48,127 nucleotides of DNA from Candidatus Bathyarchaeota archaeon (lineage in GTDB: Archaea > Thermoproteota > Bathyarchaeia > TCS64), in the NCBI GenBank assembly GCA_043826455.1, contig JBDRQD010000059.1, forward strand, positions 1 to 48,127. The letters run 5' to 3'. Positions within the stretch are counted from its first letter, which is position 1. Every line of letters starts with the position of its first letter. The notes beneath the pieces were generated by a model that was given only the letters and a program-made list of their open reading frames with translations, searched no databases and was not told where the DNA came from. Made by a program: the position numbers and the translations under genes. Shown here piece after piece: positions 15,862-27,378 of the stretch.

Positions 15862-16155
15862 TTGGAGGCAGTAGCACGGGGAGTCGTGGAGCAGGCCATA
15901 GACGACGAGCTCATTGACAGGCGCCTGGAGCTCAACCACAACACCTTCAAGCGCTTCGAGGAGATGGGCATCGTGGAGAGCGCCGAGAGCGCCATGTTCG
16001 GTAAGATATACGCGGAGGCCTTCAGCTACTTCATCAACTACAAGATGCACAGCAGGGAGCCCATAAGCCTCCAGGAGATGGCCGAGTTCGAGAAGGTCAT
16101 CGACCGCCGCGTCTTCGAGATCAAGAGCAAGATAAGGCACCTCTCCGGCAGATAG
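15862..16155 (+). CDS. Hypothetical protein
   Basis: 97-aa ORF, strong GC3 codon pattern, TTTTTAA upstream. Confidence 0.7.
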   Translation: MEAVARGVVEQAIDDELIDRRLELNHNTFKRFEEMGIVESAESAMFGKIYAEAFSYFINYKMHSREPISLQEMAEFEKVIDRRVFEIKSKIRHLSGR

Positions 16156-16161
16156 TTGTTG

Positions 16162-16222
16162 AAAATGGCTGGAGGGTGCGACTGGGGAAAGGTGAGGAAC
16201 CCATACCCTCCAGACCGACTCG
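16162..16222 (-). ncRNA. Candidate small hairpin RNA
   Basis: 9-bp stem 16169-16177/16205-16213, minus-strand TTTAATA box at 16250-16244, T-run after the stem. Confidence 0.3.
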
Positions 16223-16304
16223 CGTCTACACCCAACCCAAGGCTATTAAATAGAGTCTTGTAGCTACACCGTACAGACAAAGGTTACAGTGACCTCGGAA
16301 ACCG

Positions 16305-16397
16305 TTATAAGCTGCTTCACGGTTGCCCTTGTTGGCGGGTGAGTGGGGCCTCCGACCCGTTCCGCCATATAAATCCCGGAGCAAGGAGGTAAAACGT
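16305..16397 (+). promoter_or_regulatory. TATA box plus structured, riboswitch-like 5' leader of queT-queC
   Basis: TTATAA at 16305; stem TGGCGG/CCGCCA; loop CCTCCG complementary to both CGGAG and the SD GGAGG. Confidence 0.55.
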
Positions 16398-16874
16398 GTG
16401 AAGACAAGAGACTTAACGTTAGTTACGGTTTACGCCGCCCTGTACGCGGCCATGGTTGTGGTGTTTGCGCCCCTCTCCTTCTACGCCCTGCAGTTCAGGG
16501 TAGCCGGCGTCTTGAGGCCGGGTATAGCCAAGAAATGGGAGCTGGCCGTGGGGTACGCGGTGGGGGTGGCTGTGGCCAACCTGTTCAGCCCCTTCGCGGG
16601 CATCTACGAGATACTTTTCATGCCCATCATGAGCCTGCTGGCGGGCGCAGCCGGGTACTATGCGGCTAAGAGGTTCAACGGCAGCTACTACGTCTGCGGC
16701 GCGGTCATCGCTATTATAATTCCTCTGAGCGTGGCGTGGATGCTGATGCAGCTCTTCAGCCTACCCATGCTGGTGACCCTCCCTGGGCTGCTGGTCAGCG
16801 AGCAGGCCGTCAACCTGCTGGGAGCAACCACATTCAAGGCCGTGGAGTCGAGGATCAGGTGGTGGGAGACGTGA
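16398..16874 (+). CDS. queT: QueT family (preQ0/preQ1 precursor) transporter
   Basis: YAALYAA..APLSFYALQFRVA and ANLFSPF; GTG 16398 after GGAGGT; coupled to queC. Confidence 0.85.
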   Translation: MKTRDLTLVTVYAALYAAMVVVFAPLSFYALQFRVAGVLRPGIAKKWELAVGYAVGVAVANLFSPFAGIYEILFMPIMSLLAGAAGYYAAKRFNGSYYVCGAVIAIIIPLSVAWMLMQLFSLPMLVTLPGLLVSEQAVNLLGATTFKAVESRIRWWET

Positions 16875-17515
16875 AGTGCGTAGTCATACTCAGCGGCGGG
16901 CCTGACAGCGTCACCGCGGCCTACTGGGCCAAGGCCCAGGGCTTCGATGTCCACGCGGTGACCTTCAACTATGGCCAGAAGGCCCAGGTGGAGATAGAGA
17001 GGGCTAGGATGATAGCCGAGGAGTTGGGCGCCGAGCACAGGGTCATCGACCTCTCCGGCCTCAGAGGCATCTACGAGGGCGTCACCAGCCTGGTGGACGA
17101 GGACTTGGAGGTTACAGGCGAGTTCACGGAGCCCATCATAGTTCCCTTCAGGAACGGCGTCTTCATGGCCGTCACCGTGGCCTACGCCGACACTGTGGGT
17201 GCCCACCACATCTTCTACGGGGCCCACGCCGGCGACGAGCCCTTCTACCCTGACTGTAGAAAAGAGTTCTACGAGGCTTTCCAGGAGGCCGCCAGGAGAG
17301 GCACCGAGAAACCCATCGTCATCGCATCCCCCTTCAGCGACACCCCCAAGTCAGGCATCATCAGGGAGGCCGTGAGGCTGGGGGTCCCCCTGGAGAAGAC
17401 CTGGAGCTGCTATCTGCAGGGACCCATCCAATGTGGTCGCTGCGAGTCCTGCGTTAATAGGAGAAACGCCTTCAGGGATGCAGGGGTCCCAGACCCCACA
17501 GAGTACAGGGAATAA
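16871..17515 (+). CDS. queC: 7-cyano-7-deazaguanine synthase
   Basis: SGGPDS, FNYGQK, VPFRN, YPDCR and TWSCY..CGRCESC; GTGA overlap with queT. Confidence 0.95.
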   Translation: MKCVVILSGGPDSVTAAYWAKAQGFDVHAVTFNYGQKAQVEIERARMIAEELGAEHRVIDLSGLRGIYEGVTSLVDEDLEVTGEFTEPIIVPFRNGVFMAVTVAYADTVGAHHIFYGAHAGDEPFYPDCRKEFYEAFQEAARRGTEKPIVIASPFSDTPKSGIIREAVRLGVPLEKTWSCYLQGPIQCGRCESCVNRRNAFRDAGVPDPTEYRE

Positions 17516-17546
17516 AGATATAGTGTTCAGAAGGTATGTCTCAGGG

Positions 17547-18131
17547 ATGAACGTCAAGATCGTCAGGCTCATGGGGTTCTTCGGCGTGGCCGCGCCCGTC
17601 GTGGGGGCCATAATGATTTCCCTCAGCGTCCTGTCCACCCCGGGGTGGAGCCCCGCCGAGGACACCCTCAGCGCCCTCGGGGCCTCGGGGTTCGGGGCCG
17701 TCGTCTTCAACGGCGGTCTTCCCATGACGGGGGCCGTGATGATGCTCTTCAGCACAGGCCTCTTCGAGCTGAGCAAGAAGGCCCCCGTGGGCCAGGCCGG
17801 GAGCGCCATGTACCTGGCAGCCTCGGTGATCACCGCGGCCCTGGGGTTGGCCACCATAAACCATCAGCCCTACCACGACTACCTGGCTACACTGCTCTTT
17901 GCGCTGATCCCACTGAGCATGATCGTCTTCAGCGTTCACCTCTGGGGCATGGGCCTCAGGGTCCACGCGGCTCTGGGATTCATCGGCGGAGCAATAAGCG
18001 TGGTCTCCATCTTGATGGGAGGCCCTGTGAACGGGTACAGGGAGATAGCCATCACCCTAGCGTTGAGCGTGTGGCAGATGGCCCTCGGCCTCTGGATGTA
18101 CAGGCTGAGGGAGCCGGGGGAAACAGCCTAG
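17547..18131 (+). CDS. DUF998-like membrane protein
   Basis: PGWS....LSALG and FNGGL motifs, multiple TM segments. Confidence 0.7.
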   Translation: MNVKIVRLMGFFGVAAPVVGAIMISLSVLSTPGWSPAEDTLSALGASGFGAVVFNGGLPMTGAVMMLFSTGLFELSKKAPVGQAGSAMYLAASVITAALGLATINHQPYHDYLATLLFALIPLSMIVFSVHLWGMGLRVHAALGFIGGAISVVSILMGGPVNGYREIAITLALSVWQMALGLWMYRLREPGETA

Positions 18132-27302: not shown

Positions 27303-27378
27303 TGGCGCCCCGGGGAAGACTCGAACTTCCGGCCACCTGATTAACAGTCAGGCGCTCTACCTACTGAGCTACCGAGGC
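27303..27378 (-). tRNA. tRNA-Asn (GTT)
   Basis: 76-nt cloverleaf GCCTCGGTAGCTCAG...CTGTTAA...GTTCGAG...CCGGGGCGCCA with encoded CCA. Confidence 0.97.

Follow-up and report, generated by a model that had tools for sequence, protein, structure and literature searches.

The stretch of DNA analysed here, called the window throughout, comprises positions 1-48,127 (48,127 nucleotides, forward strand) of contig JBDRQD010000059.1 in assembly GCA_043826455.1 of a Candidatus Bathyarchaeota archaeon. On its plus strand lies a likely operon composed of queT (16398-16874, GTG start at 16398, 158 aa; Pfam PF06177, E = 2.1e-15), queC (16871-17515, GTG start at 16871; PF06508, E = 2.5e-59) and, as the third gene, an open reading frame (ORF) for a DUF998 membrane protein (17433-18131; PF06197, E = 1.9e-14), the true start of which is probably located later in the ORF than 17433. 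The start of queC overlaps the stop of queT by 4 nt (GTGA), and because of this overlap translation of queC may be coupled to that of queT. Immediately upstream of queT is a 56-nt element (16334-16389, plus strand), which begins about 25 nt past a TATA-like box and ends with the queT Shine-Dalgarno (SD) sequence. Comparison with related genomes leaves very little doubt that this element is a real, conserved and structured leader in which a pseudoknot masks the SD. The leader probably represents a hitherto undescribed archaeal riboswitch, which would respond to a 7-deazaguanine precursor in tRNA modification, for instance preQ0.

The promoter-like region, recognised from its sequence and A+T profile, occupies positions 16298-16310 (plus strand, as are all features of the element) and consists of a purine-rich GAAACCG resembling a transcription factor B recognition element (BRE), followed by TTATAA at 16305-16310. 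The element opens with the 5′ strand of helix P1 (GGCGG, 16334-16338), which faces the 3′ strand CCGCC at 16362-16366; with one flanking base on each side, this corresponds to TGGCGG at 16333-16338 facing CCGCCA at 16362-16367. The loop closed by P1 starts with the purine-rich segment L1 (GUGAGUGGGG, 16339-16348), followed by the anti-SD CCUCC with G16354 (16349-16354), which constitutes the 5′ strand of the pseudoknot, and, farther on, by CCG and UU (16357-16361), the CCG being a candidate for a 3-bp extension of the pseudoknot. Downstream of P1, the A-rich linker L3 (AUAUAAA, 16367-16373; ATATAAAT at 16367-16374) leads to the conserved UCCCGG version of a YCCCGG box (16374-16379) and then to the SD GGAGG with U16390 (16385-16390), located 8 nt before the GTG at 16398, which serves as the 3′ strand of the pseudoknot and pairs with the loop through positions 16385-16389. 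G16348 can form a wobble with U16390. The anti-SD is a copy of the 3′ end of 16S rRNA from the same genome (...GGAUCACCUCCU), and the calculated duplex energies in the window are -11.1 kcal/mol for anti-SD:SD, -8.3 kcal/mol for CUCCG:CGGAG, and -14.4 kcal/mol for the whole interrupted helix.

Most of these strings had been named in a first-pass annotation of the window, and all of them are found where that annotation had placed them. It had proposed an archaeal translational switch of the preQ0/preQ1 type, which would work through two mutually exclusive pairings of the loop, CCTCC (16349-16353) with GGAGG (16385-16389) and CTCCG (16350-16354) with CGGAG (16377-16381), and through an additional alternative stem, GGCGGGT/ACCCGTT. 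A switch of this type is supported by the covarying P1 and anti-SD:SD pseudoknot and by the link to queT described below, which together point to such a function from sequence comparison. The CCUCC:GGAGG pairing is kept and covaries; the switch pairings fared differently, being without conservation. CTCCG:CGGAG requires a G at 16354, which, besides the window, is present only in one other member (L066) of those inspected, and the corresponding column is C in 72 of 100 aligned sequences. The alternative stem has uncompensated breaks in 17 of 100 sequences.

A search of 40 related genomes for QueT homologues yielded 14 orthologous loci with 66-78% protein identity. The 14 congeneric leaders share a nearly invariant core consisting of GGCGGGUGAGUGGGNCCUCCNACCCGUUCCGCC, the A-rich linker, YCCCG, a few bases and the SD; the 25 nt between the TATA-like box and the core and the spacer before the start codon vary freely. 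RNAalifold found no covariation within the genus, since all positions are invariant there. The identical leader type also precedes a second type of QueT, which is only about 35% identical to the first. The two types, of about 157 aa and about 165-176 aa, occur within genus g1 (exemplified by L018, L021, L022, L023 and L027 as against L003-L015), and some genomes hold both.

A covariance model (R1, alignment A2) was built from 19 of these leaders, and 100 diverse members aligned to the model (alignment A6) were used to count both helices against 500 shuffles. P1 is part of the model structure and the pseudoknot is not, so that the alignment was not fitted to the pseudoknot. In P1, the first pair is GC in 71 sequences, AU in 16, GU in 7, UA in 3 and other in 3, and the fifth pair is GC in 83 and CG in 17, with none unpaired. 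In the pseudoknot, where the loop CCUCCN pairs with NGGAGG, column pair 23-93 is occupied by CG in 85 sequences, UG in 8 and UA in 4, and column pair 26-90 by CG in 65, UA in 5, UG in 3, AU in 2 and other combinations in 12. Over the two helices, 96.8% of the cells are paired versus 91.1% after shuffling, 49 cells are changed on both sides versus 9.6, and the covariation score is 0.188 versus 0.090 (and at most 0.106 with slid partners); each of these three values is reached by none of the 500 shuffles. Covariation in the homologous leaders is thus present for P1 and the pseudoknot alike.

The pseudoknot is also preserved through replacement of whole helices, with variants such as CCUUCC:GGAAGG, UCUCCC:GGGAGA, CCCUCU:AGAGGG, CACCUCC:GGAGGUG, CCACCUCC:GGAGGUGG, CCACC:GGUGG and UUCCGAC:GUCGGAA. 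Among 202 distinct members, 91% can form a loop-to-downstream helix of at least 6 contiguous bp, and 77 helix variants are represented; the mean longest helix is 6.69 bp with the member's own downstream sequence, 6.13 bp with those of other members and 4.92 bp with shuffled ones. Duplex energies calculated for 189 distinct members follow the same order (-13.5, -12.1 and -8.9 kcal/mol, respectively). The CCG at 16357-16359 could additionally pair with the CGG at 16377-16379: pairing is possible in 99.0% of 287 cells, and both sides are nearly invariant. This makes the CCG:CGG pairing a compatible candidate only, which would give an interrupted helix of CCUCCC-AC-CCG with CGG-NNNN-GGGAGG. In the two members without the CGG (L171 and L323), the pseudoknot reaches an unusual length of 7-8 bp. 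A pairing between the GGG of L1 and the CCC of the YCCCGG box was considered and rejected, as it leaves 20 cells unpaired and displays no covariation.

Conservation in the same 100 sequences extends well beyond the helices. In L1, G6 (16339) is 100% and U7 (16340) 99% conserved, the two following positions (8-9) are purines (GA, AG, AA or GG), and the GGG part is absent from some members (L154, L161, L169, L172). Toward the end of the loop, G26 (16359) and U28 (16361) are both 100% conserved. In L3, A36 (16369) is conserved at 99% and A38-40 (16371-16373) at 100%; the remaining positions are variable, and so is the length upstream of AAA. In the YCCCGG box, C42-44 (16375-16377) are 100% conserved, the next G 99%, and the last G 85%. 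Such 99-100% conservation of positions predicted to be unpaired exceeds what the helices require, and L1 may share in forming a ligand pocket.

The motif is tied almost exclusively to queT. Among 141 pooled model matches, 118 have an ORF of 50 codons or more that starts no farther than 25 nt downstream, and Pfam identifies 112 of these ORFs as QueT, 111 of them above its curated cut-off. Thirteen loci that were missed initially were re-read with other or more downstream start codons, and all 13 yielded QueT. The six remaining non-QueT ORFs comprise one with a wrongly chosen start (L087), one behind a weak RNA match (L175), and four membrane proteins of 229-234 aa (L117:1563-2258; L119:608-1294, minus strand; L124:266-967; L129:266-967). 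The latter match no Pfam family and are QueT-like over their first 29 residues only; they may be transporters of a different kind that the same switch controls. In the QueT frames of several loci, ATG, GTG and TTG are all missing at the normal spacing from the SD, and the frame would begin with CTG (L011, L305), ACG (L063, L145), ATA (L101) or ATC (L107), which could be either non-canonical starts or assembly errors. Where at least 1100 nt of downstream sequence was available (120 loci), queC follows queT in 41 loci, and a DUF998 homologue is found downstream in 31, directly after queT in 24 and further on in 7, the latter being placed after queC wherever the order could be told. DUF998, for which L066, L022 and L074 provide examples of such partnership, may have a role in the uptake or salvage of 7-deazaguanine.

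The R1 model finds a single copy in the genome to which the window belongs and is positive in 60 of 70 other genomes of its family, with no positives among 8 genomes from three other families of the order. In the class as a whole, the motif is present in 90 of the 151 genomes sampled, which belong to 52 of 79 genera, and in other classes of the phylum it is present in 15 of 131 sampled genomes. These 15 are concentrated in four families (9 of 15, 3 of 3 and 2 of 2 genomes, and one match in the fourth); in the families of other classes that were sampled 19, 13 and 13 times there was no match. A scan with a degenerate pattern over one genome per prokaryote species returned at least 120 stretches, and among the matches listed the whole element is present in 76 of the 80 loci examined; the other four (L189, L191, L195, L200) are on GC-rich bacterial contigs and were rejected for want of the full motif. 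The contig titles among these listed matches are mostly Candidatus Bathyarchaeia or Bathyarchaeota, together with three Methanomethylicota, several labelled “Nitrososphaerota” and one “Promethearchaeati”. Three contigs of metagenome-assembled genomes bearing bacterial labels (L244, Methylomirabilota; L251, Acidiferrales; L252, Patescibacteria) hold the complete motif, which could reflect mislabelling, mis-binning or transfer. A scan of viral contigs for the motif yielded no matches. Weak R1 matches of about 20-24 bits (L093-L099, L173-L175) have no QueT ORF behind them and were dropped as chance hits. A second copy in genome G082 (L092:301-354), also excluded, has kept P1 through a compensatory change (GGCUGG...CCACC), but its CCCGG box and SD are gone and no QueT ORF follows; this copy is probably a duplicate in the course of decay.

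In 188 distinct leaders, the A+T content at -35 to -25 from the start of the element is 0.73-0.90, with a peak of 0.90 at -29, against a background of about 0.5-0.6, and a purine-rich stretch precedes the peak. An archaeal BRE/TATA region would lie at this distance if transcription begins within a few bases of P1, which is where the first-pass annotation had put the likely start from TTATAA. In the window, such spacing would put the transcript start near 16330-16334.

None of the 4,227 models in Rfam 15 matches the element: cmscan of positions 16150-16450 at E ≤ 10 gave no match, preQ1-I, preQ1-II and preQ1-III included, in line with the earlier statement that the leader could not be assigned by eye to a known class. 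At gathering scores, a tRNA gene (27306-27378, minus strand, 74 bits) was the single match in the entire window, and 15 diverse members searched at E ≤ 1 matched no preQ1 family; the single match among these 15, to isrK (22 bits versus a cut-off of 50), lies beside the element on the other strand and was discarded. To our knowledge, few riboswitch classes are known in Archaea. A full-text literature search, with most subscription journals outside it, found no archaeal preQ0 or preQ1 riboswitch and no “class IV”, and the one paper containing both Bathyarchaeia and “riboswitch” has the latter word in its reference list only. In a 2024 review, preQ1 riboswitches are treated as bacterial and the word “archaea” is absent (PMC11625349).

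According to that review, queT in bacteria is controlled by preQ1-II and preQ1-III riboswitches through SD pairing, and both classes offer instructive comparisons. Like the element, preQ1-II (RF01054, the queT/COG4708 motif) precedes queT and has the complete SD paired within the aptamer, in helix P3; its control is described there as purely translational and the class as limited to Bacillota (PMC11625349). However, the preQ1-II fold is given in PMC11625349 and PMC11602147 as an HLout pseudoknot of four helices, one of them the inserted hairpin P4, and with U-A-U triples, whereas in the G/C-rich element P1 and one pseudoknot helix are the only ones supported; its linker from P1 to the SD, 15-25 nt long, has no visible stem, and no inner hairpin covaries. 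PreQ1-III (RF02680) is likewise located upstream of queT and docks a hairpin-loop anti-SD with an SD in its 3′ tail, but it is about 100 nt long, with five helices and a pocket far from the SD helix, in the review's account (PMC11625349), as opposed to 56 nt and two supported helices in our case. The covariance models of all three preQ1 classes fail to recognise the element, which nevertheless has what riboswitches have in general, i.e. a conserved and structured aptamer with covariation in a 5′ leader, the leader position being deduced from the promoter signal. By the tests run, it resembles these riboswitches in its predicted working and belongs to none of them.

Taken together, these data lead us to regard the leader as likely to be a riboswitch sensing a 7-deazaguanine. 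In its more specific form, which we favour only slightly, this would be an archaea-native riboswitch class, present in Bathyarchaeia, Methanomethylicota and some other lineages of the same phylum, which senses preQ0 in a pocket that differs from that of each of the three bacterial preQ1 classes and governs salvage where de novo synthesis is mostly absent. In the model that we infer from the comparisons, positions 16334-16389 would combine the aptamer and expression platform of a cis-acting RNA switch of a new class, with which the queT-queC(-DUF998) mRNA would begin, arranged in the order P1 5′ strand, L1 (GUGAGUGGGN), anti-SD, AC, CCG, UU, P1 3′ strand, A-rich L3 with YCC, CGG, about 4 nt, and SD. 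The 5-bp P1 would close the 23-nt loop, and the CCUCC(N) of the loop would pair with the GGAGG of the SD 30 nt downstream. The CCG:CGG pairing probably extends this helix across a small internal loop, the A-rich linker probably runs along P1, and the invariant unpaired bases (G6 U7, G26, U28, AAA and CCC) probably form the pocket at the junction of P1 and the pseudoknot. With enough 7-deazaguanine, most likely preQ0, ligand binding would stabilise the pseudoknot and hide the SD, so that initiation on queT would stop, and with it that on the overlapping queC, making an OFF switch. Ligand binding and ligand identity, the OFF logic, the pocket, the CCG:CGG extension, the coupling and the transcript start are the predicted components of this scheme.

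Several observations weigh against this interpretation. The genomes compared are related, and the shuffle tests therefore overstate significance. The gain in duplex energy with a member's own downstream strand over that of other members is modest, because most members share the same anti-SD. In the window itself, G16354 faces A16384 as a mismatch at the sixth position of the pseudoknot, and the leader folded alone has a minimum free energy of -23.2 kcal/mol, compared with -24.2 ± 3.2 kcal/mol for 200 shuffles (z = 0.32), 129 of which fold as well or better; the single-sequence fold is no better than chance, and it is comparison across genomes that makes the element real. There is no ligand-free alternative structure with comparative support: of the inner hairpins that could play such a part, GUGGG:CCCAC scores 0.077 versus 0.083 in shuffles, and GGG:CCC is matched by 59 of 500 shuffles. 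In L172, L320-L322 and L324, the pseudoknot has a 3′ strand that does not resemble an SD, and 35-61 codons of the open frame precede the QueT domain, so that SD masking is not the whole story there. In L165, the 3′ strand is also not SD-like, yet a start codon (UUG) is located 9 nt past the model match. These non-SD members keep the pseudoknot by compensatory change, of the CCGAC:GUCGG type in L165, L172, L320 and L321 and of the CCACC:GGUGG type in L322 and L324. The fold is thus kept for its own sake, and such members may use another expression platform.

The predicted transcript start may also be set against metatranscriptomic contigs from Logan, in which one run holds a small share of the stretch and three other metatranscriptome runs hold nothing from it. 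A relative that is about 94% alike contributes a contig of 374 nt covering 16288-16661, with its first base already upstream of the TATA box; as contigs can show neither start nor strand, and DNA may be present in such libraries, this contig neither supports nor refutes the predicted start. Inside the element, the only difference between this contig and the window is at 16370, where the linker is variable; in the covered part of queT there are more than 15.

If the leader is not a riboswitch, it could be a site at which a trans-acting protein or another macromolecule, e.g. a tRNA, controls queT translation, with no binding of a small molecule. The invariant unpaired bases would suit a protein site too, and such a factor would be compatible with the lack of a supported ligand-free fold and with retention of the fold in members with a non-SD pseudoknot. 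However, no candidate gene for a regulator accompanies the motif, whose observed neighbours are queT, queC and DUF998; inspection by eye revealed no tandem G-A on both strands of the kind found in kink-turns; and a 56-nt pseudoknot with an A-rich linker and SD pairing is the layout of known small riboswitches for the same pathway. We consider a trans-acting factor unlikely, though it is the alternative that survives best.

Another option is that the element is a very divergent member of preQ1-I (RF00522) rather than a new class. The likeness is considerable: in the review's description of that class, preQ1-I is an H-type pseudoknot with the same strand order (P1-L1-P2-L2-P1′-L3-P2′), in which a 5-bp P1 is followed by an A-rich linker and P2 is formed by loop bases and an SD-bearing 3′ tail; it is associated with 7-deazaguanine metabolism genes, and some of its members are translational OFF switches (PMC11625349). 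The element does display a short P1, an A-rich L3 and a P2 joining the loop to the SD tail. Nevertheless, RF00522 has no match at E ≤ 10 in the window or at E ≤ 1 in the 15 members. PreQ1-I is described as having a specificity C directly before the P1 3′ strand, preceded by U in type I and by A in types II and III; the element has UU instead, the two bases in question being U in 95 and C in 5 of the 100 sequences and then U in all 100. The loop measures 23 nt versus about 11 in preQ1-I, and the pseudoknot helix of 6-9 bp covers the whole SD, so the element is not the compact fold of about 34 nt; its invariant GUGAG, CCCGUU and YCCCGG boxes are extra and are not among the class I features described in the review (PMC11625349). 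Finally, the element is archaeal, and its likely ligand would be preQ0 instead of preQ1. Membership in preQ1-I is, in our opinion, quite improbable.

Still less probable is a constitutive structured leader, or a thermometer, which would damp or time translation of a membrane protein and sense no metabolite. Helices that mask an SD can work without a ligand, and a fold in the window that is not unusually stable would fit an element designed to melt, but this leaves unexplained both the 99-100% conserved unpaired bases across at least 52 genera and the near-exclusive link to queT, with one copy in the genome and QueT encoded by 112 of 118 ORFs. A DNA operator for a transcription factor, acting on the transcript start through the inverted repeat GGCGG...CCGCC that P1 constitutes in DNA, would be suitably placed immediately past the TATA box, at a position where repressors bind in archaea, but it is very hard to reconcile with the wobbles tolerated in both helices (GU in 7 sequences at P1 pair 1, UG in 8 at column pair 23-93), with a second helix that is confined to a single strand and connects the loop with the SD over a distance of 30 nt, and with half-sites 23 bp apart around an asymmetric invariant spacer.

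The physiology of the host is consistent with the riboswitch reading. The genome containing the window is 97.7% complete, and its rRNA operon matches the archaeal small-subunit and large-subunit models. It encodes the archaeosine tRNA-guanine transglycosylase (ArcTGT), the substrate of which is preQ0, and has one clear match to QueC, that of the window. It has no PTPS/QueD match, and the QueE model finds in it only weak radical S-adenosylmethionine (SAM) enzyme matches, at 22.5 and 19.6 bits versus a cut-off of 206. In the class, a PTPS/QueD match is present in only 13 of the 151 sampled genomes, and import of a precursor would therefore matter; archaea of this class seem to depend on importing a 7-deazaguanine, largely by salvage, judging from gene content. 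The motif is matched (E ≤ 0.05) in 5 of the 13 PTPS-positive genomes versus 85 of the 138 others. With queC in the operon, the imported compound could be 7-carboxy-7-deazaguanine as well as preQ0.

If the riboswitch reading is correct, RNA sensing of 7-deazaguanine would have had a second origin in another domain of life, or would have diverged there so far as to be unrecognisable, and a fourth architecture would become available for comparing the ways in which RNA recognises 7-deazaguanine ligands. It would also yield a small switch, suited to archaeal ribosomes, that acts by masking the SD. For the Bathyarchaeia, which are abundant and hardly cultivated archaea of sediments, it would mark QueT, QueC and DUF998 as a salvage regulon.

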